DNA of 64,000 nt from Bilabrum cf. latius. Taxonomy: Eukaryota. The translations under genes were made by a program, and so were the position numbers. Below are positions 11,899 to 52,135 of this stretch, piece by piece (position 1 is the stretch's first letter; the number at the start of each line of letters is the position of its first letter). Under the pieces are notes generated by a model, which saw only the letters and a list, made by a program, of their open reading frames with translations, was not told the DNA's origin and did not search any database. Location: contig OZ237745.1 in assembly GCA_965178125.1 (NCBI GenBank), positions 62,001 to 126,000 on the forward strand, read 5' to 3'.

Positions 11899-14800
11899 AT
11901 GGCAGCCGCAGTCGGGGGAGAACCCGGTGCTGCTGTAAATCCCAATGGTCCTGGAGCCCAAGTTGCCGCTGCAACGGCATCTGGCACACCTGCTCTGCAG
12001 ATGGACACTGTCGGGCCGATTGTAAAGCAAAGATTTACGCAATTTTTGTAGAAGTGAGAGCAGCGCGCTTGGCGTGTTCTGTTCCATGCCTACCTGCATC
12101 GCAAGGTCAAACCTAGATGCCAGTTGAAACAGCAGGCCAGAATACTGGGAACAGATCGAAACAAAGCAGAGCCAGATCACGGCACGGATCCGTGTTGTAT
12201 GCGTCTAACTGTGCCCCTTGCTTCGATTTCATCGCGCAGCTTCACAGTTCGAGTGCGATACTCGGAACCGTCTGAATCAGGCGACGATCCATCCCAGCAT
12301 TCGACAGAAGACGTGCACGAATATTTGGAGCAGGTGGATGCAATGAAATAGCACGAACATCATACTCTGCAGGTCGATTTTAGGCACCTGGTCGCCCACG
12401 ATGAAATGCTCTCCTAGGTTATCTCCGACGACTACTACCGATACGACTGGTGGTTGCGGCAGGCTGCTTACGACGTAGTGAAGGCCCGGGCCCCCGATTT
12501 TGCTGACCAAGACACCGCTTAGAAGACGTTCTTCGTGTCATTCCACAACATGCCAGCGATCCTTCGGTGAGGAAGTCGCTCGTCCCCGCTGCGTGCACCG
12601 GCAGCACGCCAACCCTAAGCCCGCCTTGCCCGACTCATCCCATGCTCCAAGCGACTCTGCCTCACCCAGAAACAAGTCTTCTTCTTCCACTTTCCCTCAC
12701 GCAGAGTCCGAGAGCTGCGGGCCAGCCAGATCGGCCGCCTCTCCTCCTTCCGCGGCACAGTCACCCGGACCAGCGAGGTGCGCCCGGAGCTGCTCCTCGG
12801 CGTGTTCACGTGTGACGAGTGCAACACCCGGTCTGACCCGGTGGAGCAGCAGTTCAAGCTCACGACCCCTGCGCGATGCCGCAACCCCAGCTGCCCGAAC
12901 CGCACCCGGTTCCGCCTTGACCTGGACCGCTCCCGCTTCGTGGACTGGCAGAGAGTGCGCGTGCAGGAGAACTCGGATGAGATCCCCCCGGGGTCCATGC
13001 CCAGGTCCGTGGACGTGGTGCTGAGGCACGCGGCCGTGGACAGGGCCAAGGCGGGCGACCGCTGCGAGTTCACGGGGGCGCTCGTGGTGGTGCCTGACGT
13101 GTCGCAGCTCATGCGCGCGGGGCAGGCGCCCAGGGCACACACGAGGCCGGCGGGGTCCAAGCTGGGCGCGGGATCCGACGGAGTGACGGGGCTCAAGGAG
13201 CTGGGCGTGAGGGATCTGACCTACCGCACGGCCTTCGTGGCGTGCAGCTGCCGCAGGGAGCAGCAGGCTGGGCTGGGCTCCAGTGCCCTGGAGGACGACG
13301 AGGGCGAGGACGAGCTCGAGAGGATCCGGGCCGAGTTCCCGCCCAGCGAGAGGAAGGCCTTCCACGACCTGGCGGCCAAGCACAAGAGCTCTCTGTACCA
13401 GCGCATGACCTCGAGCGTGGCCCCGACAGTGTTCGGGCACGACGAGGTCAAGCGGGGCGTCCTGCTCATGATGCTGGGGGGCGTGCACAAGCGCACCTCG
13501 GAGGGCATGAGCCTGCGAGGGGACCTCAACGTGTGCGTGGTGGGAGACCCCTCCACGGCCAAGTCCCAGTTCCTCAAGTACACGCACAAGTTCCTGCCGC
13601 GGTGCGTCTACACGAGCGGCAAGGCCTCCAGCGCGGCAGGTCTCACCGCCTCGGTGGCCAAGGACCCCGAGACGGGCGAGTTCACCATCGAGGCGGGTGC
13701 TCTCATGCTGGCGGACCACGGCGTGTGCTGCATCGATGAGTTCGACAAGATGGACCCGGCGGACCAGGTGGCCATCCACGAGGCCATGGAGCAGCAGACC
13801 ATCTCCATCACCAAGGCAGGGATCCAGGCCACGCTCAACGCCCGGACCTCCATCCTCGCCGCTGCCAACCCGGTGCTCGGCAGGTATGACCGCTCCAAGA
13901 CCCTGCGTCAGAACGTGGGGATCAGCCCCCCGATCATGAGCAGGTTTGACTTGTTCTTCGTAGTGCTGGACGACTGCGACGAGGCCCAGGATCTGGCCAT
14001 CGCGAGACACATCGTGGACGTCCACCGGAGGCAGGCAGACGCGCTGCACCCGGACTTCGAGCCGGACTTCATGCGCAGGTACATCAGGTACGCCAAGACC
14101 ATCCAGCCCCAGCTGTCGGCAGAGGCGATGGAGACGCTGGTTGCGTGCTACCGCCGGCTGCGGCTGGGCGACGCCACCGGTTCCCAGCGGTCCTACCGCA
14201 TCACTGTTCGTCAGCTGGAGTCCATGGTGCGGCTCAGCGAAGCGCTGGCCAGGCTGCACCTGGAGCCCGTGGTGCGTGAGGAACACGCTCTGGAGGCTTA
14301 CCGGCTGCTGCAGAGGTCCATCATCCACGTGGACTCCGGGAGCGTGGAGCTGGAGGCGGCCGAGCCCACGGTCATGGGACAGGACTCGCCCGATGCCGGT
14401 GAGGAGGAGGGGGAGGGTGAGCGGGCCGACGAGGACGAGGACGAGGATGAGGATGGCGGCAAGGGCAAGGGCAAGCGCGGGGGCAAGCGTGACAAGAAGA
14501 GCCTGCAGCTGACGTACGACCAGTACTGGCGCATCGCACGTGCCCTGCAGCTGTACGTGCGATCCAGGGAGACCGCCGAGAACGGTGGGGCCATCCCTCA
14601 GTCTGACATGGTGAACTGGTACCTGGAGCAGCAGGCAGACGAGCTCGAGTCGGAGGAGGAGCTCGCCACGCAGCGCGTGCTGATCAACCGCGTGATCGGG
14701 CGCCTGATCGAGCACGAGGAGAGGCTCGTTGTGGTAAGGGCCGTGGACGTGCGGGCGAGGAGGGAGGGCGAGGGCAAGGAGGACGAGGACGAGGATGAGG

Positions 14801-17504: not shown

Positions 17505-19852
17505 ATGGCATTCGCAAAGTTCTCTCTCGGTGATGATGCCGAGGGTGCATCGACAAGTTTGTTTGGAGGAGGTGCAATGACCAGCGAAGGGTCCGTTCCA
17601 TTCGCTTTCGGGGGGAACGATTCAGTTGCCGCTGATGGCGGTGCTGGCGAGACGAAGGAGGCCCCCGCTCCTGCCATAGACTACAGCCCGGGATCAGAGG
17701 CGCCGAATAAGCTCGAACTCTTAGCAGCTGCGTCTGGTGAGGGATTTAGGTTCCAGATTCGCCCCGTCAATCGCGTTCGGTGATTCCCAGCTGATGCCAT
17801 CATGCATGATTCCCCCCCCGCCAGCTGCAGACCCCCAGCTGGCCGACATTCGAGCAGCAGTTGATGGACTCCGTGTGCTTGCCGGCATCGAGACTGTAAT
17901 CGTTGAGCCGTGCGCTGATGCCGCCACGCTCTCCAGCTCTGTCGAGGCCAAGTTTGCAGACCAGGTGAGAGGCTCCTCTCTCTGTGGCAAGGCCCACCAA
18001 GCTTCGTCCATTTCCTTACACTGCACGCCATCTCCATTCATTTTCCTACTGCTCGCAGCCGTGGCTCTCATCAGCGACAGCCCGCATCGCCGAAGGAGCC
18101 TCGGCAATTCTGGTGGTGGACGGCGGCCGCGGGGTGGTGCAGGGCTCCGAGGAGGTGCTCACCTACGTACGGACTGCGTTCAGCCGATCACTGTCCAGCT
18201 CTCGCCGTGTCACCCACGAGGACGGGCAGGCGGACGGCAGCGCCTTCGATTACGACCTGTTCGTGATCGGGGGAGGCTCCGGCGGCATCGCCTGCGCCAA
18301 GGAGGCCGCTCGGCTGGGGGCCCGGGTGGCGCTGGCAGATTTCGTGAAACCCTCGTGGCAGAACACGCGCTGGGGGCTGGGCGGCACCTGCGTGAACGTG
18401 GGCTGCATCCCCAAGAAGCTCATGCACACGGCGGCCATCATGGGTGAGGCACGGCACGAGGCGAGGCACTTCGGGTGGGATCCAGTGCCTGGGGCACACG
18501 GGGCCGGGGCCGGGGGCGAGGGACAGGCGCCCATGTCCTTCGGGGCACCTGCCACGCACGATGCCAAGGCCGTCAGGGGGCAGCACTCGTGGGAGAAGCT
18601 GGTCGAGGCGGTGCAGAACCACATCGCGAGCCTCAACTTCGGGTACAAGAACGATCTGAGGTCCAAGGGGGTCTCCTACAAGAACGCGCTGGCCACCTTT
18701 CAGGACGCACACACCGTGGAGCTGGTCAACAAGCAGCGCAAGCGGTCCACCGCAACCTCCGCCAGGTTCGTGGTGGCGGTGGGCGGCAGGCCCCGCCCCC
18801 TGTCCTGTCCCGGCCACGAGCTGACCATCAGCTCGGACGACCTCTTCTCTCTAGACGAGGCCCCCGGCCGCACCTGCGTGGTGGGGGCTGGCTACGTGGC
18901 CCTCGAGTCCGCCGGACTGCTCGCCGGGCTGGGGTACGACGTGGTGGTGCTGGTTCGGTCCATCCTGCTGCGGGGGTTCGACAGAGAGGCCGCGGATGCG
19001 ATCCGGGCGGACCTGGAGGCGAGGGGCGTGCGCTTCATAGTGGGTGCCACGCCCCTCAATGTGGAGGAGGCCAAGGAGGAGGAGGAGAAAGGGGCCGCGT
19101 CAAGCGCGTCGAGCGGGGCGGGTGGATCCGCAGGGGAGGGCGAGGGTCGGCTGCAGGTCACCTGGAAGGACCCCGCGTCGGGGGAGGAGGTCACGGAGCG
19201 GTTTGGCACGGTGCTGGCCGCCGCGGGCCGTATCGCAGACACGCGGTCCCTCGGTCTGGACAAGGTGGGGGTTGTGCCTGCGAAGAACGGCAAGCTGGAC
19301 TGCGAGGACGAGCAGACGAGCGTGCCGAATATCTACGCAGTGGGTGACGTGGTGAACGGCAAGCCTGAGCTGACCCCCGTGGCCATCATGGCGGGCAAGC
19401 TGCTGTCCAGGAGGCTGTTCGGGGAGGGTCCCGGGCGCGCGATGGACTACGAGCTGGTGCCCACCACCGTGTTCACCCCGCTCGAGTACGGGACCATCGG
19501 GCTGAGCGAGGAGGACGCGATCGAGAGGCACGGGGAGGATGCCGTGGAGGTGTACCACAGCAAGTATCACCCCCTCGAGTGGACCGTGGTGGAGGAGAGG
19601 GAGGCCAGCCTGGCCCAGGCCAAGCTCATCGTGCTCAAGAAGGAGGGAGAGAGGGTCATCGGGTTCCACTACCTGGGCCCCCACGCGGGCGAGGTCACGC
19701 AGGGCTTCGCGACTGCCATGCGGCTCGGGTGCACGAGGCAGGACCTCCTCGAGACGGTGGGCATCCACCCCACCTCTGCGGAGGAGTTCACCATCCTGGG
19801 CGTCAGCAAGAGCAGCGGCGAGGACGCCCAGAAATCGGGGTGCTGAGGTTAA
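17505..19852 (+). CDS. TXNRD: High-Mr (animal-type) thioredoxin reductase, selenoprotein with C-terminal Gly-Cys-Sec-Gly
   Basis: Motifs YDLFVIGGGSGG, GGTCVNVGCIPKKLMH, GAGYVALE, PELTPVAI, VPTTVFTPLEYG and GIHPT..EEF. Ends GGG TGC TGA GGT TAA (TGA 19844-19846, TAA 19850-19852). Predicted exons 17505-17736, 17831-17964 and 18059-19852; the 5' exons are less certain. Confidence 0.95.
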
Positions 19853-20611
19853 GCCCCCCGGCCCGTGAGGGTCCCGAGTGCCTCTGGTGAGTGCAGTGAG
19901 TGTTAACAGTGAGAGAGGTGCCTGCTGGTGGTTGCGGCGCGTGTTGTTGTTGTCTGCGTGATAGAGTGGGCCACAGTGTGAGGAGAGGGATGGAAGCTCG
20001 CTCGGTGAGCGGGGGCGCGATGCACTGCATTGTGCTGCCGCCTCGCCTGGCCGATTTCTTCACCTTCTTCTCGCCTGTCCATTCACAGCAGACACACACG
20101 CGCCCCGCCCCGCCAGCGGGTGTCTCTCGAGCTGCACTGCATTGCACCATGGGTGTGCTCAGGACCAAAGGACGGTAGTCGGGGGGCTGGAAAGTCGCGC
20201 CCTGTCGGGAGGAACTGCCCTGTTGTTCTCTCTTGTTCCCTCCCTTGCCCTGCCCGCCTCCTTTTTCGCCCTGCACGTGCATCTGGCAGAGCACCGTTAT
20301 TTTGGTGCCTGGCTGTAAACGCCGCGGGGTGATTAAAGGTGACGGGGTGTGGGAGGGGGGACTAGAAGCAGCGGGGTGGTTGGAGGTGGGAAGGAGAAGG
20401 CGCGCCCCCGGGATGTGCATCGCATGGCGGTGCATCCCGGCGGGGGCAGCGGAAGCGTGTCACCCAGTGTGGGTGGCTCGCGCTTGGTGGTGTGTGCGCA
20501 TGTGTGGTGGGGTAAGGTCGGGTTTAGGTAGTGGTACCGTGCATCGAGGGGCTCTGTTCCCTCACGCTCTGCCCCTGCCTCAGTCCTGCCTGTGCCCCGT
20601 CCTCGTGCTGG

Positions 20612-20677
20612 CGGTGCCTTATGACGGCCCTGGCTGTAATGGCGCTTTTTGGCGCTTAGCCTTGGCCTGAAGGTGGG
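20612..20677 (+). promoter_or_regulatory. SECIS element (type II) in the TrxR 3' UTR
   Basis: ATGAC core at 20621 and 3' TGAA at 20668. Helix II pairs GGCC-CT-GGCTG with TAGCC-TT-GGCC. Unpaired AA at 20638-20639, followed by the apical mini-stem GGCGC-TTTTTG-GCGCT. Confidence 0.85.
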
Positions 20678-20965
20678 TCTTCGGACCTAGTCGCAGCATT
20701 TGCAAGTCATGTGCTCATTTCCACTCATTTTGCGTTGTACCGTAACTTGTGCAATCATACACGTGCGACCATATCAGCATGCGCGCGCAACGTTGTGCGA
20801 TCGACCAAAATAGAAGAAGAACAATCATGGAACCGAAACACAAACTCTCCTACTTTTACCGGGTCGCTAGCGTAGAAATATTCTTCTGGTTCCCTGTGGC
20901 TCCTGCGCGTAGATCGCGAGTCCCAGCACATTTCGAAGTGCTGCTAAGAACTCCAAAGCTGTGGA

Positions 20966-23900
20966 GCCATGTTTGCAAGCTAGTCGACAGCATTGGGAGA
21001 GAATTCCAAGGGGCCCCTCGATTTGATCTTGGAGTCTCTCTATGGTTTTGCCTATGTTATGTCCAAAGAGATGACGGTGGAATAGAGAGCATACTTAGTG
21101 TTCATTACGATTGACGCGTTGCAGGTGAGAGAATCCCAGCGGGTGCCGCTCCTCGCACACGGAGGAAGCCGTTGATTCCTAATCGAACCAACGGTCAGAC
21201 CAAAACAAGCACAAGAAATACCGTTCATAACACTTCATCCTGCGCTACTATTTTGTTTTATCGTGCGCAGTTCTACAATTTCCCGGTGAATAGCTCGTTG
21301 TGGGAAGGCGGAGACTCGGCCGGTATTCCACCCCTCGCGACAGTTCTGGACGTCCTCAGCGGAGACTTTGTCGCAAGGTCCAGCTTGTTCACGCTTTATG
21401 TTGTCCTATTAGTAGCATCCACGCTTTGGACGTCCCTTTTCGTGGCCGCGAGCTGTTACGTTGGTGAGAATCCTCACGTTGTGTACTACGCCCATCATAT
21501 GCTCCTTGTTTGGCTGATACGGTGTTCGCAAGCTCCATGCAACCCATGATGCAAATAAGTTTGATTTTAGTCCAAATTCATTTTGGTTTGGAATCACTGC
21601 TCCACCGCTTTCCATCGATTGCAGCGTGGTGCTTCATCACGAAAGCGCCCCAATCTGGCATCGTGCTCAAGGGCCTCAGATCGGTGGCGACCTTGACGAC
21701 CACAACTCTATTCCTGCCGTTTACGACTGTGATGGCCAGGGCACTCGGGTGCCCGGGCGTGGAAGCCCCCGCCGAGTCTGGCTCGCTGGATGGCTTCTCG
21801 TGGATCGGCACGGGCTGGCAGTGCGATGCCGCCGGCCCGATCATCATCCGTATTTTCATCAGCGCCGTCCTGCTCGTGTTCGCGGTGCTCAGCGTGTTCA
21901 TTACGGCCGTGTTCATCGACCGGAACCCGGCCTCTGCGTCGTGGAGCGCCAAGAGCCACGGGCGGGTGGACGCTGTGGTGCTCGTGATCAAGGTAGTGCT
22001 GGTGCTCTGCTTCACCGTGTTCCGGGATGTGCTGCTCGACTCGTGGGTGCTCACCGCCATCCTCTACCTCTCGGGTCTCACGTGGGCCGTCCTCATGTTC
22101 AGGCAGATGCCGTACGTGCACGCGGGTGTCAACGGCATGCAGACCGGGTTTGCAGCCGTCTTCGTCTGGTCCACGGTGGCGCTGACTCTGCACAAGTATG
22201 CCAACTACGGAGACCTCAGCGTGCTCTTCTACATCGGTTGCGGGCTGTCCTACTGCCTTGGTTTCCTGGCCGTGTACGCCCGGGAGCACTATATCGCCAT
22301 GCTGCCGCTGGAGGAGTGCTCCAGGGTGGTGCACCTCGACGTGTGGGCCAGGCACCGCATGCAGGACTTCGCGCAGAGCAGGATGTAGTCGGGGGGTGCG
22401 GTGGCGGTGCTGAGCGACAGGGCATAGCGCAGGGGCAACAGGGGCAATGACGGTGGTGCAGGTGGCGGTGGGACGTTCCTCATGCAGCTGGGTGGTCAGC
22501 TAATGGGCCTGGCAGAGTCGTCCACCTCTGGGGGGTTGAACGGCTCCCACAAGCGTGCCGCTTCTGGTAGTGGAGGAGGCAGTCGTACGAAACACAAGGG
22601 AGCGGGCGCAAGGGACCGCTCCGGTGCTGGGCGTGGTGACGACACAGACGCCTCTCGGTCTGCAGGGGAGCAGGGCTTGCACGAGAGCTCTGATGATGAG
22701 GTGGAGGACGAGGACGAGCGGGCGGTGCTCCTGGCCCAGCGCAGGGCCGCAGCTTCGGCTGCTCCTCGTCTGGGTCTGGACACTGGTGCGGCGCTCATTG
22801 CCGGAGGAGAAGGGCTTGCTTCCTCTGCGGACCTCGGGGGGAACATCGATGCTGACACGCTCTACGGGCAGCGGCTGCTCCACAAGGCGTACTCCAACCC
22901 ACGGAGGAGGCTCGAAGAGCAGCGGCTGTACGCAGCCGAGCGAGCCTACCGCCACATGGTCATGCACCACGCGCAGAACCCCATGAGCCACGTGCTGGCA
23001 GCCGAGTTCTACCGCTCCTTCTACCCAGAGAACAACTTCGCCGAGGCACAGTGCCTATCTGCAGCCAGGCTGAGGCAGCCCGGGCTGGACGTGGCCTTCT
23101 TCATCTACCAGCGCACCAGGGCGCTGCGGGAGGGAGCTGACTCGAGCAAGCTGTCTGCGCTGGACCGCGTGATCTTCGAATCGCTGGCCAAGCAGGCGCA
23201 GGAGAGCAAGATCGCGGCACAGCGCAGCATCCTCAAGCTGTGGGAGCACCTGTCGCAGAGCCATCCGCGGGTGGGTGACCTTGTGGGAGTCAGCGTGGAG
23301 ATTGAGCAGTCTCTAGCTCGCACAGAGGGTCTGTACAAGACCATGATGCAGCTGAACTCGGGAGCGCTCGTGGCCCGCAACTACGCCGAGTTCCTTCTCG
23401 AGCTGAGGAACGACCCAATGCCCGCCATGGAGTGAGTCTGCTGCTCTGACCTAACCATGCAACCCTTTGCCATGCTACCTTTTCTTTTCGTACACTCAAC
23501 TGCCAGGGATCCTATAATGCTTCCTTCAGTCTCCTGTTTACACCCCCCCTCGCTCTATCCCGCAGGCTGTTCAACAAGGCCGACCGCATCGAGGAGAGGC
23601 ACACTCGGCAGCGGCAAAAGGCAGTCAAACACGTGGTGCTGGGCGCGCCTGCTCCTGATGTGGACCAGCTGGACGATTCTGCCGCCAGTCTCACCGTCAG
23701 CGCTTCGGACAGCAGCCTGGGTGAGATCCTGTCAGCCTCTCCAGCGGCCTGTCGACTCTTCGGGCACTCGAGCACGAGCTAGATCGTGGGACTGCCTGTG
23801 CTATCGCTGCTGCCGGAGCCTGTCCGCACCTTGTGGTAGAGGCGAGTGCACTCCATGGTGCGGCTGGGCTTCTCACCGAACCTAAATCGCACCGAAGTGA

Positions 23901-26900
23901 CCTTTGTGCAGCAGAGCAACGGAGCGGCCATCCCCGTGCTGCTCTCGCTCATGGAGAGCACGCCCGATGAGGTTACCTCCTCCCCGCGCCTGACCGTGAG
24001 CATGGACCGACTCAGGTGCGAGGAGAACGTGATCTTCTTCGCGGGCCCCCGCAGCGGACTCAGGGTGCTCTCTGCCAGCGCGTCCTCGCTGTCGCTCATG
24101 GGCGTGGATGCAGACTACCTGCAGCGGGAGTCGTACAGCATCAAGCACCTGCTGCCTAGCGCGGACCGCGGGAGCTTCGACGCGGAGGATTGGGCCCCGT
24201 GGGCGATGCTGGCTCTCCTGGAGAACTCCACTGGGGTGAGGAGGCACGGGAGGAGCGGCAGTCCAGGGCGCGCCTCTCGGTCCATGATCAGCATGCGGGG
24301 CAAGGGCGGCAAGAAGGCCAGGGCCCAGGAGCGGCGCATGAGGGAGCTAGACCGGAGACTAGCCGTTGAGCTGCGGGAGTACCTTGAGTCGGACGAGGCG
24401 CATGCCGGCGGTGACTCGCTTCTCATGATTGCGGGGGGAGACCAGAACGCAGCTGCTGCTATGGGCGGAGCCGGTGCTGCAGGAGGGGGCAAGGGCGGAC
24501 TGGTCTCTCTCGGGTCCTTTATCAAACAGGGCAGGCACGACCTATCAGGTGCCGGATCCAAGAAGAAGAGGAGCAAGGACGGCAAGGGCAACGCGAGGAG
24601 CGCGGCAGGATCGTTCAGGGCGCCGCATCCGCCGCCGGCCATGAGCTCCTCGAGCTCATTCTCTCGCAAGCGGTCTGCGGATGACATGCACCTGTCGGCT
24701 GTGCTCGAGGGAGACATGCGCACGATGCCGGTGTTCCCTGCTTCCATGCAGCTCAAGAGCCTCCTGCGACAGCGGGACACCGGCATGATACCTGTGGAGG
24801 GGGCTTCGGACGGGACGAGGCTTGTGTTCGGGTCCGTGCAGGACCTGACCCCGCTGTTCGGCGAGAGGCAGTTCATGCTGCGGTGGAGGCGGCCAGGGCA
24901 CGAAGAGTCACGGGCGCTCTTGACAGCGGTGCGACAGGCTTTGCTGGACGCGGGCTTCGGCAAGCGAGGCGGTGAAACACAGGAGGGTGGCTCTGGGGGC
25001 TCCCGTGAGAGATTGGGAGCGAAGGCTGCCGGCGATGTACCCACGCCGACTGTGAACGAGTCGAAGAAGAGCAATATTTTGCAGCTTGGATCTGGCGGAG
25101 ACAGCAGGAGCAAAGTATCCGTGTCCGTTGAGGTACCGCAGACGGTACAGCTCACCACCGCTGCGGATGACGATGGCAGCCGATCGATATCAGGCAGCTC
25201 TGCAGGTGGCACAGAGCAGGGGACGGTGGGCACCACCGGGGGCAAAGAGGCAGACTCGAGGGGCACTAGGCGTCGGTTCAGTCAACTGGGTGGGCGCATG
25301 GCCCAGGAGAGCCACTCCAGGCAGCCGTCCTCGAACGCGACTGGCTCAGTTGGGGGCATGTCCGTGAGCCAAGTCGATCCAAAGTTGGGCAGCCGAGAGG
25401 TGTCTAGCAGCTCATAGGCTTCCATGAACAGTCAGACACCCATGAACTCTGAGAAGGGACTGGCTAGCAAGTTCGCTGGGAGGTCTGCGTCACTCATGGT
25501 GGCAGGCAGCAGTACTGGATCTCAAAACAGTACGGCTGCCAACAGCCAGCAGGGCATGTCCTCGGCAAGGGGCATTGCTGCACCGGGCCCACTGATTGCG
25601 AAGGGCCGCCGTGGGTCATTCGCTAGGCATGGAAGTGCGATGAATTCCATGGGCAAGAGGCGAGGGTCGGCGATAAGCGATGGAGGGGCTGCTTTCCGTT
25701 AGAACGCCGAGGACCAGGGCAGCGTGGCATCATCGCAGAGCTGGATGGCGCAACAGCTCAGCAAGGTGGTGCAGACCAGGGCACAGGCAGCCAGCGAGGA
25801 GGTGTACGCGATGCAGGTGACCTTCTCGATACTTCTGGTCATCATCCTCATCCTCGGGGTAGTTGGTATCGTCACGCAGCGCGTCATCGGACAGGAGCTG
25901 CAGCGGGGCTCGCGGTACCTTTACATCACCAGCGAGACAGCCATGGAGTTTCAGGCCTTCTACAATGAGTATCGCTTCTTGGGGGCGCATAATTCAGCCA
26001 CATTCCCCCCGACGCTGCAGGACACCGAGCCCACCTTTCAGCGCATCAAGGCCCGGGCTCTCAGGCACTAGCAGCTGCACCTGGAGCTGACCAAAGCCAC
26101 CCCGGCCCTGGGGGCCCGCCGTGCCATCGACTTCGTGCAGGAGCCCATCTGGCCCTACTCGGACTCGGACCTTGCGGGATCAGCCATCGGCACCACCAAC
26201 GTGAGTGCCCTCAGGATTGGAGACGTGCTGACAGGCATCATGCTGACCATGGCAGGCGGCGAGGAGTCAACCTCGATAATCTTTGAGTCGGTGCCATACC
26301 GCACGCTGACAGTGAACGCAGACACGTACATCGAGGCCCTGAATGCCACTCTGTCCTAGCGACAGCTCGACGTGGTTGACTCTTTCGACACTGCCCGCTT
26401 GCTCATCGGGGGCATTGGCATTGGATGCTTCGTGGTGGCAATCACCGTGGGCTGCATCCTCTTCGTGCGGTCGCTCAGGGGACTCCGACAGCGGACCATT
26501 GCCGTGCTGGATCTGCTGGCCCACATGCCGCAGCGCATCGCCAAGAACCTCAAGAGCAGGGCCAGCGTGCGATTGACCAACACCGTGGCTAAGCTGGAGG
26601 GGCTGGAGGACGAGGACGAGGACAACCAGCGGGACATGGGCCTGGTGGACGAGATGGATGACAAAGAAATGGTCCGGGCTGCCATCGAAGCGGGAGCAGA
26701 ATCCAGTGATTCGGGCAGCTCGGGCGAGGAGGAAGGCGGCGAGGACATGCGCCGAGTGAGGCGTATGGCCTAGTTCCAGCGAGGCAACACCATGAAGCGA
26801 TTGCTGGGCGGGGCACCCAGGTCTGCTGCAGCGGCCACCAAGCTTCAGGACCAGGAGCAGGAGCGCTGGAAGGCACTGATTTCAGCTGAGAACCAGAGGG

Positions 26901-28486
26901 GTGGGGGTGGGCGGCTGATCAGCGGCAACAGCGTGAGTAAGGATACCATGAGTCTTGGCAAGGAAGCACTCAGCATGGGCAAGGAAGAGGCCATGAACAG
27001 CGCCAGGAGCTACGGGTCTGAGGATGAAGAAAGTAATGGAACCGCTGCCAGTGGCGGTGCTGCTCCCCGTCCGAGTGCATCGCAGCCACTAAGGGGCAGG
27101 CGGGGGTCTCGCGTGGTGCCAGCCACGGCAACTGCTGGAGGGGTGCGGGAGAGCTCGCAGGCCAGCCAGGGAACAGAGTCAAGCCAAGTCGACTATGAAG
27201 GATCTCTGGCTGGGTCTGATACTGGCGGTGGTGGCAACTCGAAGGCTGCAGACAAGGCACCGGGCCCGTTCAGTATCGGCGGCCCTGCGTTCAAGCAACC
27301 TGGCTCGCCAGCATCCACCCGCCCGCTGCAGATGGACGCGAAGGCGGACTTGGCCAGGCTTGAGCTGGCCCGGGGGCTCGGGCAGTCCGATGGCGATCTA
27401 CTAAAGACTGGTAGCGATGGCCGCGTGAAGCGGGCAGCAAGCAGCAACCGACGCAAAAAGAGGCGGCAGTCGATCGCAAGGGCGCTTCAGAAACGGGAGT
27501 TTAGAGACAACTGGACGTTCACGCTGCAGTCGACGATCCGTTTCACGGTGCCGCTGATGCTATTCTTCGGCTGGGTGCTGTACCTGGTGATCATGGTTAC
27601 CACGCTGCTCAACCAGGTGATGCGCTACAATGAGAGGATGGTCACGCTGCAGCGAATGGCCATCGACTCGGTTGACTACGTCAGGATTGCGCAGAACGTG
27701 GGCTTCCTTGCACCCACCAATGTGACTCGAGCCAGGGACCAGGCCATTGCGGAGGAGATCGAGGGCCGCATGCTGCAGACTCTGCAGAAAGTCACCATCG
27801 GGGGGGAGGTGGTCGATGAGGCGACTGGCTTGACCACGACCTTGGGCAGCTTGGAGCACGAGTACCCGAAGCGACTCCTGTTCGACGAGGCGTGCTTCGA
27901 GTCTCCTGACCTGGATGGCTGCCTCAGGGCGGGAGAAAGCACCCTCGAGCTGCAGGGCCTCGTGTTCGGGTTCGTGGACCCGAGGACACGCACGTTCACG
28001 CGCTCCATGCGGAACGGTGCCACCACGGCAATCTACTCTCTGGCTCAGGGTCTAAGGCAGTTCATAGGAGGCAGGCACCCAGACATATATCCTGGCGAAA
28101 GTCCTAACTTCAGCCCGTTCACGAACCCCATATACATCCAACTGCTCTTGCTGTGTACTGAGCTGGCCCAGCCGCACTTGCACGACTCGCTTCGGAGAGT
28201 GGCGGCCTTCTATGCTAACGAGGTTGAGGATCGCATTGACTAGTTCATGCAGATCAATGAGGCTGTGATTGGGAGCTACTTGGCAGTGGCCTTCATCGCC
28301 GTTGTGGTGCTCTACTGGAATGCGTTCCAGCACCTGTCGGCCCCGCTGTCTGCCTCGTGGCAGGCCCTCAGCGTGGTGCCACCGGGTGTGAGGGATTCGC
28401 TGCCGGGCATGCGCAAGGGAGTCAGGCAGCTGCTCACCGACGTGCAGGTGGGCAACCAGGCCAGAGGGGATGCGGGCGATGACTGA
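20966..28486. repeat. ~7.5 kb inverted duplication, arm 1 (partner ~52136-59596)
   Basis: Near-identical reverse-complement sequence and translations, for example ORFs 21510/59038, 22482/58066, 23846/56707, 26792/53827 and 28247/52375. Similarity ends just outside the ATG and TGA. Confidence 0.97.
20969..28486 (+). CDS. TmcB/TmcC-like multi-pass membrane protein with helical (TPR-like) region and PAS domain, copy 1
   Basis: Exons 20969-21124, 21271-21463, 21625-23431 and 23566-28486. N-terminal multi-TM block (LYGFAYVMSK...IDALQ, LFLPF, SHGRVD, MPYVH), NYAEFLLELRND, PAS-like GEILSASPAACRLFG...IVG...LLPEP, and later paired TM segments. 12 in-frame TAGs; terminal TGA. Confidence 0.8.
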
Positions 28487-36700: not shown

Positions 36701-38845
36701 AGCACGCTGAGCTTCCTGGCCCAGCAAGGCGTAGCTCTGGAGGACTCGGAGCGGGAAATGAAGGCGGCACTGGCCGCTCGCCGAGAGGCCCTCCGTCGGG
36801 GGCTTTCCCACCAGGCGGCCGTGGAGATGCTGGAGAACAGGCTGCTTGAGGAACAGGAGAGGAGGAGAAAGGCCGGGGCTGAGGCTGGGCCACGGGCTGG
36901 AGCAGCTACTGGCGGCACAGTCGTTGGGAGCAGCAGCGGGTTTCAGTCTGCGGATCCCTCTGGGCGTGCCACACCCTTGATAAGCAAAGAGGCAGTGCAC
37001 GAGCGCGCCAGGCAGATTTACGAGCACGCGGGCGGCGCTGGCCCGGCACAGGCCTCAGTCTCTGGCACTGCCTACCTGCTGCCTCCCGGGTCCAGGACCA
37101 TCTCGGCGCACACATCGCCGAGCGTGTCCCCCACTAAGGGGGAGGGGGCCGCGGGGGGCCGCAGCCTGCCCCCGGGGATGGGCCCAGGACCTCGCACCGA
37201 GAGCGGTGTGGCGAGTGCGGTGGCGCATTCCCCCACTGGCAGCGTGCCCCCAGTGGCTCGGTACGCGCCCCGGCTCTCTGCAGACGCGCTCAAGCAGATG
37301 GCCACGTTCCGCAAGGTGTCCTCGCAGGCACCCAGCAGGGCCAGCGGGAGCGTAGCACCCCCCTCGTTGCCCCCCACCGTGGGGTTCCCGACGAGGGGGA
37401 GCAGCCGAAGGGGCAGCTTGGGGTACGGCCGCTCGCACTCTAGGTTAGCCCCGGGGCGGCGGGCCAGGTCGAGCGCCAGAGGGCCGGCTGGCTCGAGGAC
37501 GGGGACGGGTGACATGAGGGTCCGGGCCTCGCGCTCCCCTTCGCCTGCAGGGCCGCAGCGGGGGGGCAGGTGGGGTAGCAGGCGCTCCTCCTGGGGAACA
37601 AGCCTGTCGGGTCGACTGGCCCTCGAGGCTGCACCGGGGCTCGGCCGAGGTGTTGGTGGCAGCGCCTCGCGCAGCTCCCGCGCGCAGTCCGACGCGCCCC
37701 CGAGGGTGCACCAGTAGAGGGTGGCACCACCGCCTGCTCCCGACAGTGTGCCCGAGCTGCCCGCCGAGAAGGAGAACGCATCTGAAAACGGGGAGCCTAT
37801 CGAGCGGGGTGCCTGGGGTCAGTCGGCGGCAGAGAATGTGCCCATGTTGCCGGATGAGGAGGATGCCGAGGAGGAGGAGAAAGAGGAAGGTGAAGAGGAG
37901 GCCGGGCCTCGCCTGGCAGTAGAAGGATACTAGGGGCTGGCGGCCACTGCGGCAACAGGCGCATCGTATAGTGGTGTTCCCGCTACTGGAGGTGCAGCAG
38001 GGGCAGGGACAGGGTTTGGGCAGGTCCCCCCCGGGATGGAAGACATGCCTGAGAGCGACAGGAGGGCGGCAGCTGCCATTGCGAGGGCACAGGCGGGGCT
38101 GGGGCGGGGGTCCAAGGCACCGCCGGGCGTAGCAGGGGCGGGCTCTAGCTCAGCCTACGCCGCTTCGCAGGGCCCGTCTGTCTCCGGGCGAAGGCACCGG
38201 CAGAGAAAATCAAAGGCGAGGGCAAGGGCCAGGGAGCTCGGGAGCGACGCCCGGTCCATCGCGGGGTACTCGACCGGGCTGCCGCTGGAGGTGCCTGTCA
38301 CCATGACGGGGCGCAATGCCGGGGAACAAGAGGGACACACGCCAGGCAACGGGCTGCGGAACGCGGTGACGCTGCGGGGAGCCCGTGAGAAAGCCTCTCA
38401 GTTCGGGGGGGCCGCGGGGGGGGACCGGTCCCACGCCGTGTTTGCCTCGCAGATGAGGGAGGGCTTCTACAGGCCCGACGATGCGCTCGAGGAGAGGACG
38501 GGCAGGAGACAGGCACCCGTGCGGGCCCCTGCCGGGTTGGGACCGTCCGACAGGTCGGTACCTTCTGACGCGACGCCGTCGTACGCCTACCGGCATGTCG
38601 CCAGTGAGGCGGGGTCGAGCGTGTACGACCGGCTGACCAACCCCGGGGGGTACACGGGGACGCACAGGCATCGGTTCGGGCGCGACGGGCGCGGCAAGGG
38701 TGTGCGCGGTAGGGATGACACGTCGGTGGACTATTAGTGGGCGGTGCACATGCAGCTCGATGCCGGGGCGCCTGTCCTGGCGGACGGGCTCGGGGGCGGG
38801 GGGGGATACTTGCGCCCGAAGGGCTCCGGCAGGGGCGGGCGGTGA
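33774..38845 (+). CDS. Large protein: N-terminal p25alpha/TPPP-like part, SAM, WW, disordered region, C-terminal partial p25alpha (GxGxGxxGR) motif
   Basis: Exons 33774-33873, 33961-34090, 34183-34250 and 34368-38845. LSFDGFLDALEELS; SAM-like IRSFLWSVGLEHAMGPLREQGI...RARLL; WW WEEFTNGDGYVYYVHLQSGRTQWEHP; VYDRLTNPGGYTGTHRHRFGRDGRGKGVRGRD. 7 in-frame TAGs; TGA at 38843. Confidence 0.75.
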
Positions 38846-39014
38846 GCTTGGGCTCGGTTCGCTAGATCTGCTCCGCGTCATACTGCGCTCATCATTCGCG
38901 GTCTCAATCAATCTGTGCTTTCGCGTTGTCGCGGACGATTCCAAAAACAATTCGGAATCAAAATCGTGCGATCCGCGGGTGGATTTCGGCTCCAGGCACC
39001 GTGCCCCTCTGTAT

Positions 39015-41441
39015 ATGAATGTTATTGACCATGAAGGACAATTTGCATCTTTTTCGTCATCTACAGTGATGCCAGGGGATTGGTCCAAGCAGCATGGCTC
39101 GATCGCCGGCTGCTAGATTGCAGCTCACATAATGAGCACATCAGAAATCGACCGCGCTGTCTCGTGTATTAGTACTATGAAAATTAAGAGCATTGAAATC
39201 CGGTGCCTGTCGACGAAGTCATCGCCAAAGTTGCTCGACAGACTAGTAGGTGGCCTGATTGATAAAGGCATTCAGATCCAGAGACTCAATATTAGCGCTG
39301 TTTTGAACTTATTGGGGAACCCTGGCCATGCAAAACCAATCAGCAGGCTACTGCGTGCAAACAATGCGTCATTACTGCATCTTGTGCTCCACCTCACTAG
39401 TGCAGAGGGCGAGCGTATCGAAGAAAAGTGTGCAGAGACGATTGCAGCGGCAGTTGGTACATGCGAGAGTCTGCGCTCTGTTCAGGGGACGTACTGCAGC
39501 AGGATTGACTAGGAAAGCTCGCACCTGATGATAGCCTTGGGCAATCTCCCGAATCTCGAGACTCTTTTGGCGTTCGATCATGGAGTGCCAGGTCCCGAAT
39601 CGAAGCCGTAGGCAAAGCGCAGCAGTTTCTGGCGGGCGGTGGGTTGCAGCAAATCGATACGGGCAGTTTCAGCCCCATATCCGAGGTGCAATGACGCAGA
39701 AGCCATTCGTGGAGCGTGCAAGGCCATCGCTGCGTCAGCCTCCTTGTGGCACCTCCAGATGGCCCTACCTCCAGACGCGCATCGGGAGGCTGTGGACTGC
39801 TACAGGCACATTGCATGCGAGTTGGAGCTGAATACCAGCCATGCATCTCGCCTTGCATCGATTGTGCTAACGGCGTGTGATTCGGATGTGGAGATTGCCG
39901 GCACGCACTTGCTACAGATGGCCCGGGCTGCGCCTCGACTGCGCCTCCTGCGCGTCCCCGACATGGATGCAAAGGGCCTGGCTGGCCTTGCTCAGCGTCT
40001 TCTTGATGGTTCCTGTCAGCTGGAGGAGCTTCATATTCATCGTGTTCGGGGCAAAACAGATGTATGGGAGCAATTTGGTAAAGCGCTTGCGACCAATCAG
40101 AGCCTGCGACGCTTGGAAATCTCATCGGGCTCCATCAAGAAGATTGGAGTGGAATCGCTCGCAACTGCCCTCCAAACGAATGTTTGCCTGGAAAAACTAA
40201 AGATACCGGTGAGCGGCGTACCGAATCGCAGCATTCTGAAGCTCCTCGCCGCCGTTGGGTACTCCAACGAGACCCTCACGGCCTTGCAGCTTGCGGGCCG
40301 CTTGGACGGCAACTTGGACGATTTGCGGCTCGCACTGGCTCGGGCACTGGAGATGAACGCGTCTCTCACGTACATCTACGCACCTATGCTCTTCGCCTTT
40401 GATTCGCGCTCCAGCACGTGCTGGCATTTGGTGGACGCCGTTGCTGACAGCAGCCTGGTAGAGCTCGAGGGCACTCTTCGGAAATTCGTCTCGGACTGGC
40501 CGGTGCTTGAGACCATCATCCGTTCCAACTGCACGCTGAGAGCGCTGCACTTAACGCATGATTTTTCCGGGCCTAAGAGGGATATCCCGAGCCTGGCCAG
40601 GCTCAAGATGAGGCAGCACGTGCCGAGGTATGCCCCCGGCCTCGCCTCGTGCTGCCCCAAGGATAGCCCCGAGGCTCCTTTCATGCAGCCGGCAACGCGG
40701 CCCCAGTGCGACGAGGTGCTCGGGCGGTGGCTCTAGGAAGTGCCCCAGGCACGACGAGCCGCGTGTATGCTCCGGATGACGGCCCCGTCGTCCAGGGAAC
40801 AAGTCGATCGGGGGCTCTTGCTCGATGTCCCTGCCGTGGCTGCATACGCTACCCGTGCCCTCGAGGCGGCGGTGGTGGTCGAGAGCAGCAGGGAGGGTGT
40901 CATCGTCGCACAGGTACTGCTGGAGGCCGCTCGATTCGGAGCCGAATGTGCGCGGGCCAGGGCGGGGTGTGTGTAGATATATTGCCAGCCTCTGGCAGGC
41001 GAGTTGCCGTACGGGCCCGGGCGTGAGGAGGACAGCAACGCTGCCAGGCGGAGGATGAAAGACGCGCTGCAGTCGTCTGGGCTGCGCAAAAGTGCCACGC
41101 GGATTGTGCGTGGAGCGTCCGGTGGCGTGGGCGGGGTCAAGCGGGGCGGAGTGGTGGTCCGTTGCGTCAAGATGCTCCAGATCTTGGACAGTTGGGCGGC
41201 GGACAGGCTGGTCCGATGGAGGAGGGCCGTGGAGGCCAAGAGGGACGCTGGTATGGTGTTCCAGGCTGCAAGAGATGGTCGTCCGTTGGAGCTGGGGAAG
41301 CGGCTGAGGCTTGGAGTGCTGGCTGGGGGCCTGGATGCGAAGGGGTTGGTGGATGATGGAGCAGGTGGCACGCGGTTGGTGAGTCCATTGGAGGCGGCGA
41401 GGCTGGGTGAGCATGAAGACTGCGTGAAGCTATTGCGGTAA
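39015..41441 (+). CDS. RNI-like leucine-rich repeat protein with C-terminal ankyrin-like repeats
   Basis: LRRs ALATNQSLRRLEIS, LATALQTNVCLEKLKI, NETLTALQL and ALEMNASLTYI. C-terminal VFQAARDG and SPLEAARLGEHEDCVKLL. One frame with TAG at 39114, 39510, ~39609, 40734 and 40974. Ends TAA. Start could be 39015 or 39132. Confidence 0.7.
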
Positions 41442-42553: not shown

Positions 42554-45500
42554 TTAAAGTCGCCTGCGAGCATCAAGCACTCCTTCGGTGCCTCTACCAA
42601 GCCCCCCTTGCATCATCCTCCCAGCCGCCGCTCCTGCGGACCCACCCGCCGGCACGTCCTCAAACCTCGCCTTGGGCTGCTCCCTGCGCCTCTTCCGCTT
42701 GCCCCCTTTCTTCGGAGCCGGTGTCCTGCCATCGTTGGAAGTGCACTCATCTGCAGTGACATCCTCTCCCTTGACTGCGCCGCCCCTGCCCCTGCCCCTG
42801 CCCCTAGTCCTCACCACGGAGCCACCGGCCGCCGCCGCGTTGGAGGCGACGGGGGCAGGCGCTAGCCCTGCGTCTGGGGCAGCAGGCCGCATCAGGGCGC
42901 CGGACCTCTGCACTTGCTTTGTCGGCGGCTTAGCATGCTGATTCGCTGCCTTGGCCCTGCCCTTGCCCTTGCCCCCTCCGCTGCTCCTGCCCCTGGTCCT
43001 CGTCCTCGTCTTGGCCTTGGCCTTGATCGCACCCGCGGGGGTGTCACCGGCGCGGGCGATGAGCCGCTACCCCTCCACAAAGGCGAGGCGCTGCTGCCGG
43101 CCGCGGCTACGAGGGCCGTGCTGCTTCTCCTTCTCGTTCTCTTTCAACTGCTGCTAATCATCGGGCTCCTTTCCCCTGGCTGGCGCACGCCTGCCCTTGC
43201 CCATACCCTTGCCATTGCCACTGCCCTTGCCCTTGCCCTTGCCTGCAGCCCGCACCTGCAGCCTTCCAAGCGACGACGACTGTAGCGCTGCACAGCCCAC
43301 CGAAGATGAAGCAGAGCCCACTCGGCTGAGCGGAAGCTGGCTCAGGGCGTGACCACTGCCCGTGCTCTTGCCCCTGCCCTTGCCATTGCCCCTGCCCTTG
43401 CCCTTGCTTTGATCCCGTCCCATAATTGCAACACCCTCCCCTGCCTCCTCATCTTCGTCTTCGTCCTCGTCTTCGTCCTCACCGGAATCGCTCATTGCTT
43501 GGTTGGCTCGCCCATTAACCAGGCTGCCGCGGCTCCCATCGTCCTCGAAATCATCCTCATCCTCAACCCTTTCCTCGCACTTGTCTTGCGTGTCCAGTGC
43601 ATGCCCGTCGCCGCCCCTATCCCTGCCCCTGCCTCTTGCGCTGCCTCTCGCCGCCATCACGTCGCTCACCCGCCCAGGCATCGAGCTGGCCAGCGATGAT
43701 GGCACCGCTGCACCATCGTGCAGTGCACCATTCACATCACCATCTCGACCCCCTGTCCCAGTCCCGCTCAACCCGGGCATGCTTTCTTCCATGTCCTGGT
43801 CCTCGATGACGCGGGCCTCGCTGGACTCATCCATCGCACCTCCCCCACTACAGAGCTTCAAACCATCGAGCCCATTGGCCTGGGCCTTGCCCTTGCTCCC
43901 ACTCTCGTTCAAACCCTCGTCCTCCTCCCCGCTCTCGCCACCTTTACCCGTCCTCCGCCGCAGCCTTCCCCTGCCCCTCGTCTTCGGCACGTCCTCGGGG
44001 GATGACACGAACGAGTCTTCCACGGGAGATCGGACCGTCGAACGGGGCCTGGAGGGTGCATCGCACTGCTGGGACGGAACCCTGCCCCTGGATCGCCTCG
44101 CGGGCCCGCTGGAGAGCCGAAGCGACGAAGACACCCTCTTGCGGCCCGCGCGGGCGGGGCGGCTGGAGGGCTTCGCCGCTGTGGGGGCTTGCGAGGATGC
44201 GGAGCTGGCGCTGCTGCTGCTGCGCTGCAGGCCAGACGCATCGACCACATCATCGCCCTGCCTATCGTCATCTTTGTCCCCGTCTTCGTCTAGCATGGGC
44301 GGCTGCGCTGGCAGTCCACCGCGCTCCTGTTCCCTGACCGTACTGTCTATCGCACCACCCACCACCCCACGAACACGGCACTCGTCATGGCGCGCGGCAT
44401 CAGCGACAGAAGGGGCCCCGAAGTCTAGTGCCCGCTAGGTTATGCCGGTGACCGTGGCCGAAGTCTAGTCAGCCCGGGCGGACGACTCGATTCCGGCCCC
44501 GTGCCCATCCACCGCCTGACGGTGCGAGCTCGAGATTCCGCGCCGCGCCGATGCCGCAGCACCAGCACAAGCACCGGTGAGCCGGCGGCCACCGCTGCCG
44601 ATGAGACTGCCTGCATCTGCAGACACATCGCCGTCGAGTAGCGGCTGCCGAATTGCTCCACTGCCGTCCCGCCCTTCACCTCGGATGCTGGACAGCGGAC
44701 CCGGCGTGGCGCTACCAGCGGGCAGATCCCTCCTCATGGAACGGTCGGCGCTAGCTCCACCCGCCACTGACTTCACCCGGGCCAGCGCCCCGCGCGCGGG
44801 CTCGGACACACTGCCTACACCTGTCGAATCAAGCAGGCTGCGCATGCCCGCGCTGGGGCTGGCAGAGCCCACGGCGAGTCGCAGTCGGGCAGGTGCGGGG
44901 GTCTTGGCCGCACCAGCCAGGAAGGGGCTATTGTCATCGTGACCCGCCGCATGGTGACCCGGGTCACGATCACGGCCCTGGGCTTCGTCCATGCTGCCCC
45001 TCCGATGGCCCTCTGTCTCCATCGCGATGGAGGGGGGCGCTGCCGAGGAGGCTCCTGCGGTCCTGAGCAGGTGGGCCCGGCTGGATGCGGGGGCTGGCTT
45101 GCGAGCCGTGCGGGGGACTGCCTTACCATGCATCGCCCCTTGTCCACGTGACTCACGAGTGGGTTCCTTCCTACCCTTCCCAAGCACTGCCTCCCCCCAC
45201 CCGTCCAGGTCGTCGTCCTCTTCTTCGCCCTCGCTCCCCTGCTGCATCTTCATCTGCTACTACTGCTGCTGCTTCTGCCCCGGTCCACCAACGGCGTCAC
45301 CGTGCACCTCATCACAGACCCCCTTGCCCAGCCGCACCGCCGCCTTGGGGTCCCTCGCCCGCACCCTGACGGCCCCCGTCTCTGCCTGGTGCAACAGCGT
45401 CATCACCTCGATCTCGGACTCGGCCAGGTACCTGCTGCTGGCCAGCTGGTCGGCCCTCACTCTCTTGCCAGGGTCGCTGTCCAGCAGGCTTCGCACGATG

Positions 45501-51373: not shown

Positions 51374-52135
51374 GGGCTAGGAGAGCGGCTTTTGCGCATT
51401 GTTGATCACTCCTGTCGAGTTGCCGGTGGCGCCAGCAGCCTTCCGTGTCGACCGCGACGGCGCCGTGGTTCGTGACGGCTTTTCCCTGCGATGAACTAGG
51501 CAAGCGCATACACTATCAACTTCAATACAGCTAGCATACCACAGTTTTGGGATCGCGGACTGGATTGCGATTTCGACAGCATATGTCGTCACACAAAATT
51601 TGAACCAAAGTAGGCTGTGAGCGGACTAATCCTTGCTTACCGATGCGATTGCGCTTTGGATCCAAATAAACTGGATAAAGTCTACTGCTGGACAGCGTTG
51701 CTGCCCTTCGAAGACATGTGCTACGCGCGATACAGCTTGTTCCTGGAGCAAGCTGCCCACCTCCACTCCCCGGTTGCAACCACTTGCATCGTTGAACTTT
51801 CAAGAAGAAGATTAAAATTAATCCGATCGTGAAGAAGAAGATTATGATCCACGCAAAGTCGGCTTGAGCCGCCCAGTCATGGGATTGTAGCGGTGATATG
51901 CGGGCCACGCTATGTTTGGCACTTCGAGAGAGACGCTGTCGACGGGCACAAGGAGACGGAGTCGGGGGCAGACACCATTTCTTGATGCGTAAATCTATCG
52001 CCCCTCTGGACAGCCGCGATGCCGCACATGGTGGCTCCCATGGTGAGCAAAAGTGTAATAATGACCCGAAAACAAACAATTATGCCCGAAACCCCAAGAC
52101 AAGTTGCAACCCCCCGGGCCACTCTCGTCTCAGGG

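Follow-up and report, generated by a model that had tools for sequence, protein, structure and literature searches.

The selenocysteine-type tail of a thioredoxin reductase gene and the probable readings of UAG, UAA and UGA in a 64-kb window of Bilabrum cf. latius

In a 64,000-nucleotide stretch of DNA from Bilabrum cf. latius (assembly GCA_965178125.1, contig OZ237745.1, positions 62,001 to 126,000 of the forward strand; hereafter the window, whose own numbering is used throughout), a gene for a large thioredoxin reductase (TrxR) ends in GGG TGC TGA GGT TAA. We read these 15 bases as a Gly-Cys-selenocysteine (Sec)-Gly tail followed by a UAA stop, in a code in which UAG most likely encodes glutamine and termination is probably left to UAA and UGA alone, and we put the probability of this combined reading at roughly 0.85. 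If it is true, all three 'stop' triplets are read differently, and termination would need to act on UAA and UGA and to pass over UAG. An earlier note on this DNA, made from the letters alone, described the situation as three stop codons with three different meanings; that framing joins two known phenomena and is not a new kind of code. The TrxR tail serves as a compact internal control, as one gene fixes the reading of both UGA (as Sec) and UAA (as stop).

The tail, at 19838-19852 on the + strand, continues the reading of an open frame of 625 codons (17969-19846) at whose 3' end it stands, and its TGA encodes the penultimate residue. A degenerate version of the motif, GGNTGYTGAGGNTRA, occurs once in the window on either strand against 0.01 occurrences expected, and a match was found in 1 of 100 shuffles. 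In a Pfam scan of open reading frames (ORFs), the TrxR frame matched Pyr_redox_2 (E 2.7e-50) and Pyr_redox_dim (E 4.6e-25). The best PDB matches were TrxR1 structures, with E values down to 2.1e-157, the value obtained with rat TrxR1 (1H6V) when TGA was read as Sec; residues 175-597 of the query correspond to 95-499 of the chain. Both proteins finish on the identical last residue (SGEDAQKSGC-U-G in the window, SGGDILQSGC-C-G in 1H6V). The earlier note had claimed the canonical tail of a large TrxR here, and the claim is borne out by an alignment that ends level with a solved TrxR1. As judged from sequence, the 15 bases are confirmed as the real end of a two-exon nuclear gene for a large, animal-type thioredoxin reductase. 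The features of the gene are as follows.

17794..17964, + strand: TrxR exon 1, 57 codons, beginning at the first ATG in frame (predicted start codon), ending GAC CAG before GTGAGA
17965..18058, + strand: TrxR intron of 94 nt, GTGAG...CGCAG, with the reading frame restored across the junction
18059..19852, + strand: TrxR exon 2, coding, with the putative Sec codon and the terminator (from Pfam domains, PDB alignment and homologue search)
18389..18406, + strand: CVNVGC, the N-terminal redox-active disulphide motif, aligned with the TrxR1 motif
19844..19846, + strand: TGA, predicted to be read as Sec, the penultimate residue, aligned with Sec/Cys498 of rat TrxR1
19850..19852, + strand: TAA, the likely terminator right after the C-terminal Gly (from the alignment level with TrxR1, a short read-through of low third-position GC and no periodicity downstream)

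The long TrxR frame contains no ATG ahead of the FAD motif, and the 'stop' that bounds it upstream arises because a TGA lies inside CAG/GTGAGA, the 5' splice site of the intron that starts at 17965. In the spliced reading, the N-terminal region can be aligned with a degenerate glutaredoxin-like domain that 16 protist homologues have at their N-terminus. This domain (17794-18250, +; about 120 residues) is without a CxxC, and exon 1 is without a Pfam match. The rest of the protein resembles rat and human TrxR1 (1H6V, 3EAN, 2J3N) in its domains, in CVNVGC and in a C-terminal Gly-Cys-Sec-Gly encoded as GGN TGY TGA GGN stop. Compared with TrxR1, the window protein has the extra N-terminal domain, which it has in common with its protist homologues, as well as an acidic/Gly-Ser insert at about residues 345-365 (exon-2 numbering).

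A homologue search with TrxR scored 8000 candidates, 7895 of them with E <= 0.001. Two relatives at 96% (P0005) and 82% (P0006) identity headed the results, followed by protist large TrxRs at no more than 57%. All 16 of the aligned database-predicted protist homologues terminate in ...[GS]C, which is the position of the UGA, as do five of the six homologues that were fetched; the sixth was cut short earlier. These endings indicate that the predicted proteins were cut at the same UGA.

Selenocysteine would call for a selenocysteine insertion sequence (SECIS) element, and a candidate stands in the presumed 3' untranslated region (3'UTR).

19853..20680, + strand: presumed 3'UTR of TrxR, GC-rich (0.61-0.66) and without codon periodicity; GC is 0.48 just after it
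20616..20674, + strand: SECIS candidate, form 2, with AUGA at 20621-20624, a helix II of 11-12 positions, AA at 20638-20639, a mini-stem capped by a UUUU loop, and UGA at 20668-20670

Across 19853-20652 GC is about 0.6-0.7 in all three phases, compared with 0.67/0.49/0.88 by phase in the exon. The candidate sits about 770 nt downstream of the tail, at the end of this non-periodic GC-rich stretch, and right behind it GC goes down from 0.63-0.66 to 0.48, consistent with a 3'UTR some 800 nt long whose end would lie shortly after the hairpin. Our search pattern ran NTGAN, a helix strand of 8-14 nt, AA or CC, a loop, the strand that pairs with the first, and finally NGA. It matches once within the 1,648 nt downstream of the stop, at 20621 (AUGAC-GGCCCUGGCUGU-AA... 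...UAGCCUUGGCC-UGAA). A strict form of the pattern (ATGA + AA + GA + helix) matched five times in 128 kb, with a mean of 0.033 in 300 shuffles of the 3' region. Only the hairpin at 20621 among these five takes the SECIS form in its minimum free energy (MFE) fold, which over 20616-20674 shows helix I, an AUGA/UGA internal loop, helix II, an AA bulge, a six-pair mini-stem and the UUUU loop. The other strict matches, at 33850, 39528 and 41413 (+) and at 4497 (-), have no fold of SECIS form and were dropped; no selenoprotein gene was recognised beside these four, with nothing convincing near 33.8 kb. We regard the hairpin at 20616-20674 as a credible but unproven SECIS.

Elsewhere in the 3'UTR, a long imperfect hairpin at 19976-20074 (+) gave a chance-level match to a miRNA model (16.7 bits against a gathering score of 168 bits), and two occurrences of the motif TGCACTGCATTG stand at about 20020 and 20135. 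The Rfam search of the window returned no other credible RNA family, its weak miRNA and sRNA matches being at chance level.

According to the mechanism that we propose, the kink-turn hairpin about 770 nt downstream would bring in the Sec-insertion factors (SBP2, EFSec and Sec-tRNA) and allow this one UGA to be decoded as Sec. The ribosome would then add Gly after Sec and terminate on UAA. In the finished enzyme, the flexible GCUG tail would take electrons from the other subunit's CVNVGC/FAD centre and hand them on to thioredoxin. Because the Rfam models do not detect the SECIS candidate, Sec insertion is something that we infer. SECIS function, a tRNA-Gln(CUA) and the behaviour of the release factor at UAG are likewise predicted. 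The claim in the earlier note that UGA also encodes Sec stands as far as the tail and its alignment go, and the insertion itself stays a prediction.

The TrxR UGA might instead be a plain stop, giving a truncated enzyme without Sec, or might encode Cys or Trp, with GGT TAA following by coincidence. The lack of an Rfam SECIS and of visible Sec machinery in the window would suit such an account. We nevertheless hold it to be highly improbable, since the tail motif is unique in the window where 0.01 occurrences are expected and matches the Sec-Gly end of TrxR1 exactly, and a hairpin of the strict SECIS pattern is present in the 3'UTR where 0.033 are expected. A general reading of UGA as Cys or Trp is excluded because UGA is otherwise never in frame.

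We next consider UAG. When TAG is read through, ORFs of at most 856 codons become ORFs of 3081, 1678, 1658 and 1510 codons. The longest of these, a protein kinase ORF, contains 18, 17 and 24 TAG in frames 1, 2 and 3, compared with 0, 5 and 4 TAA and 0, 47 and 54 TGA. Likewise, 15 non-redundant, better-supported ORFs (14,241 codons) contain 57 TAG in frame and 75 and 64 in the two other frames, with corresponding counts of 0, 30 and 36 for TAA and 0, 262 and 231 for TGA. By these counts TAG is not avoided in frame, and TAA and TGA are. In-frame TAG codons also occur in two conserved genes.

12049..12522, + strand: four in-frame TAG in the N-terminal exons of MCM6 (12049, 12349, 12415, 12520), apparently sense codons
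10192..10194, - strand: in-frame TAG in the PP2A scaffold subunit A (PP2A-A), through which the PDB alignment passes (E 4.3e-131)

Exon 1 of PP2A-A has a second TAG, in the repeat AAqAAQAA. UAG is, on this sequence evidence, an ordinary sense codon in the window.

The kinase ORF itself (42554-51799, -) is a single ORF of 3081 codons in which the protein-kinase domain is split; low-complexity sequence rich in Gly, Ser, Ala and Gln makes up most of the ORF, which carries the 18 in-frame TAG.

Termination falls to the other two triplets. Among 19 ORF ends in the window, TAA accounts for 3, TGA for 16 and TAG for none; the TGA figure has a true range of 13-16, because two of these TGAs are splice donors and one or two more may be, and the TAG figure comes from ORFs that had been defined with TAG read through. 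The C-termini of TrxR, PP2A-A and MCM6, which are defined by homology, finish in TAA or TGA. Besides the TrxR terminator, the TAA ends are two.

41439..41441, + strand: TAA ending a leucine-rich-repeat (LRR)/RNI-like ORF (38637-41438), a predicted end outside homology support
42554..42556, - strand: TAA ending the 3081-codon kinase ORF, likewise a predicted end outside homology support

Reading through the three TAAs (TrxR, the 41438 ORF and the kinase) to the next TGA adds 19, 52 and 4 codons. The GC content at third codon positions (GC3) of these extensions is 0.68, 0.50 and 0.00, compared with 0.88, 0.66 and 0.72 in the respective genes. Reading TAA through leaves the ORF landscape nearly unchanged (the longest goes from 3082 to 3087 codons, and those of 1679, 1659 and 1511 stay the same). 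The TAAs that bound ORFs upstream fall in introns or 5'UTRs; the MCM6 TAA at 12616, for example, lies inside the intron 12567-12704. If TAA encoded Gln and followed CAA:CAG usage (116:677), about 13 in-frame TAA would be predicted beside 78 in-frame TAG, and none was seen. The TrxR TAA is the sole terminator that homology fixes to the residue.

From these data we rejected the ciliate code in which both UAA and UAG are Gln (UAR=Gln, table 6), as TAA ends TrxR at its homology-defined end and no TAA is found in frame. The earlier note had argued that TAA terminates here, contrary to UAR=Gln, and the short, low-GC3 extension, the non-periodic next 800 nt and the absence of in-frame TAA agree with it. 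Its statement that UGA is the dominant stop holds as well, at 13-16 of the 19 ends. UAA and UGA are, by these counts, probably the sole terminators in the window, with UGA the commoner.

UAA could also have a dual meaning and act as sense within genes but as a stop close to the ends of mRNAs, in the manner of the codes of Condylostoma or Blastocrithidia; the TrxR TAA would then carry no information on TAA inside genes. Such codes exist, as the available text of two papers attests (PMC4967479, PMC5304391), and TAA is scarce in this GC-rich window (167 and 156 per strand), which limits how well occasional use inside genes could be detected. Even so, the 14,241 codons hold no in-frame TAA where 30 and 36 fall off-frame, some 13 were expected, and no major ORF grows longer when TAA is taken as sense. 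We therefore consider a dual meaning very unlikely.

In several genes the 5' splice sites read GTGAG (17965, 12054, 12567, 23431, 57117), often with an apparent in-frame TGA at the exon end. Because GTGAG creates an in-frame TGA, the 'stop codons' of ORF maps are partly splice donors; those in MCM6 (12054, 12567) and in the TmcB-like gene (23431) are explained in this way. The TmcB_A ORF (21468-23432) and the ORF after it (23450-28483) probably belong to a single gene.

To ask which amino acid UAG encodes, we compared the two copies of an inverted duplication. The duplication spans about 7.3 kb, 21267-28486 (+) against 52136-59280 (-), with two aligned blocks (4,083 and 2,941 bases) at 94-97% identity. 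A large TmcB-like gene is present in both copies, which lie on either side of a central segment of about 23 kb. The duplication provides two paralogous ORF pairs, probably successive exons of one gene per copy. The well-aligned blocks (2,130 codons) show 120 synonymous and 55 non-synonymous differences, which suggests purifying selection on both copies. They include 11 TAG-bearing sites; eight are common to both copies, and the three that differ all pair TAG with CAG. At the non-synonymous rate of 0.026 per codon, the probability of at least 3 differences among 11 TAG sites is 0.0024. By comparison, 7 of the 14 CAA sites in the blocks differ against CAG, and CAG/GAG exchanges number 1/171. TAG is never paired with TCG in the paralogue comparison. 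The informative sites are listed below.

26357..26359, + strand: TAG, paired with CAG at 54260-54262 (- strand), one of the three TAG/CAG pairs
27953 against 52667, and 23193 against 57353: the further TAG/CAG pairs
45259..45264, - strand: TAG TAG within a CAG repeat, (CAG)3(TAG)2CAG, in the 3081-codon kinase ORF

In PP2A-A exon 1, TAG likewise completes a repeat, AAQAAQAA. Within three residues on either side of 71 TAGs, Q occurs 34 times against 18.8 expected (1.8-fold), and E occurs 26 times against 28.6 expected. When 8000 candidates were searched with a 381-residue piece of the TmcB-like protein, only two proteins were returned: a fragment of the window's own paralogue, and a relative that spans a TAG site in a stretch too variable to be informative. 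The predicted protein of a related organism stops exactly at an ordinary Gln codon of the window's TmcB-like gene. Because TAG behaves as a synonym of CAG between paralogues, UAG very probably encodes Gln, with Glu as the main alternative. The assignment of UAG to Gln in the earlier note thus comes out as the most likely one.

The same comparisons bear on the idea that the TAG-interrupted frames are pseudogenes, or are RNA-edited, under the standard code. TAGs are found in the essential single-copy genes MCM6 and PP2A-A, neither TGA nor TAA interrupts frames that reach 3081 codons, the 120 synonymous against 55 non-synonymous differences indicate purifying selection, and database predictions from the related organism break where the window has Gln. 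We judge this the least probable of the explanations considered.

A number of results weigh against our reading. For Sec, no Rfam SECIS match was obtained, either in the window at the gathering threshold or in 19700-21200 and a 101-nt slice at E <= 10. The loose SECIS pattern is non-specific, with 38 matches in 128 kb and at least one match in 41% of 300 shuffles of the 3' region, and the stability of the hairpin (-28.7 kcal/mol) is not exceptional (z = -1.75; 8 of 200 shuffles equally stable). ARAGORN detected no tRNA gene in the window, and no eRF1 or Sec-machinery gene was present among the window ORFs scanned with Pfam, which in one scan were 14 chosen out of 83 and took in only part of the small ORFs. 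The statement in the earlier note that eRF1 must ignore UAG is a reasonable expectation. For termination, there is some circularity in the zero counts of in-frame TAA and TGA, since these two codons set the limits of the ORFs, although the ORF lengths are nonetheless far beyond chance. TrxR alone of the three TAA ends has a C-terminus defined by homology, and all evidence on the code comes from a single 64-kb window.

The remaining contrary points concern the amino acid, and some of them would suit a UAG that is sense and encodes Glu or another polar residue. A fourth non-shared paralogue TAG aligns to GAA, in a gapped, poorly aligned stretch. The four MCM6 TAG columns are dominated by E, D and K, with summed BLOSUM scores of 5.3 for Glu, 2.4 for Gln, 2.3 for Asp and 1.5 for Lys. 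The PP2A-A TAG aligns to Lys in two PDB alignments (Aβ 9j5i_D and human Aα). Additionally, UAG=Glu has a precedent in a ciliate, as described in the available text of PMC11687900. Against Glu, all three reliable paralogue differences are to CAG and none is to GAG (P = 0.0024), and a CAG/GAG exchange is itself rare at 1/171; TAG TAG stands inside a CAG repeat, and the neighbours of TAG are rich in Q and not in E. As for MCM6, its four TAG columns are variable and acidic, and in a control on 143 ordinary positions the true residue came out on top at only 48. On balance we find Glu or another polar residue unlikely, and Gln remains our assignment for UAG.

Codes of this type (table 15) are already known. 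The combination of UAG=Gln with two stops, UAA and UGA, was reported in 2017 for Iotanema spirale (PMC5304391) and later for Protocruzia tuzeti, Hartmannula sinica and Trochilia petrani (PMC11687900), according to the parts of these papers available to us, which are also the basis of the comparisons that follow. As in these organisms, UAG would be the sole reassigned codon in the window, with UAA and UGA kept as terminators. UAA is the predominant or preferred stop in Iotanema (PMC5304391) and in the phyllopharyngean ciliates analysed, where the preference has been linked to lower GC (PMC11687900). The window, by contrast, has 63% GC, and TGA is its commonest terminator. The word selenocysteine has no occurrence in the main text of either paper (PMC5304391, PMC11687900).

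In other lineages, changes of UAG alone have led to Leu and to Ser (PMC11687900). The green-algal reading of UAG as Ser (Scotinosphaera) was rejected for the window, as the relatives of its MCM6 lie outside the green plants and no TAG is paired with TCG. In a rhizarian with UAG=Leu the conserved eRF1 motifs are without obvious change, with only an L69A-type substitution, and the eRF1 of Iotanema carries T32G (PMC5304391).

With regard to Sec, Tetrahymena thermophila has three selenoproteins of the TrxR family and a SECIS of the form AUGA...AA...GA (PMC2612030, from the available text). Like the window, Tetrahymena combines a variant code (UAR=Gln) with a UGA that is both terminator and Sec. 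Its selenoprotein genes must end in UGA, since UAA is Gln there; because the window TrxR gene ends in UAA, a Tetrahymena-type code is ruled out. In Condylostoma magnum and Parduczia sp., UGA stands for Trp, stop and Sec, and the penultimate Sec codon of TrxR has already served as a landmark (PMC4967479, likewise in its available text). All stop codons are context-dependent sense codons in those codes, whereas the window gives no indication of in-frame UAA, or of in-frame UGA beyond the Sec site. Amoebophrya sp. ex Karlodinium was considered as the source and rejected, as it has an AT-rich genome in which all three stop codons are ambiguous (PMC12005148). The SECIS candidate differs from the element of TrxR1 in that it is unrecognised by the Rfam models.

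The window appears to come from a GC-rich (about 63%), intron-poor, flagellate-type eukaryotic genome. Its genes include CFAP58, p25-alpha, exostosin, TraB, GST, TmcB-like, PP2A-A, MCM6 and protein kinase genes, and the presence of CFAP58 and p25-alpha indicates a flagellate. In a quick MCM6 tree of 36 rows, without named alveolates and rhizarians, the window falls in a 7-row clade (SH-aLRT 99) with environmental sequences and one record labelled Symbiodinium sp. KB8. This clade nests in an 18-row clade (SH-aLRT 99) with ochrophyte stramenopiles. The lineage is thus probably a sparsely sampled one near stramenopiles.

What we describe looks like a further, GC-rich and UGA-preferring lineage with a table-15-type code and an ordinary TrxR of the Sec type. 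We found no report, in a full-text literature that covers few subscription journals, of nuclear UAG reassignment in a stramenopile or in a UGA-preferring, GC-rich genome. It is possible, though we advance it only tentatively and at somewhat less than even odds, that in a flagellated lineage near the stramenopiles, with close relatives known solely as environmental sequences, UAG and no other codon was reassigned to Gln in an event separate from those in ciliates, fornicates, rhizarians and green algae, and that it is the first UGA-preferring case with Sec recoding. Nuclear code changes that part UAG from UAA are rare and confined to a handful of lineages (PMC5304391, PMC11687900, in their available text). 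Each new independent case constrains models of stop-codon capture, for instance by a tRNA with a CUA anticodon that is unable to wobble onto UAA, and also constrains how eRF1 separates UAG from UAA and UGA. If our reading is true, the organism would be a natural test case for third-base discrimination by eRF1.

There are also consequences for annotation. Standard-code gene callers split genes at every TAG and cut selenoproteins at UGA, and annotation of this genome needs table 15 together with selenoprotein-aware prediction. The window's own TmcB-like paralogue is present in a public protein collection (P0245) as a 212-residue fragment; as it is bounded by TAG codons, standard-code gene calling has fragmented the proteins of this genome. 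Some record names among the MCM6 homologues (P0207, P0187, P0126) are odd: records labelled Cichorium and Adiantum lie inside fungi, and the one labelled Symbiodinium sp. KB8 groups with environmental sequences beside the window. Because two 'plant' records group within fungi, such names look unreliable and probably derive from contaminant contigs.

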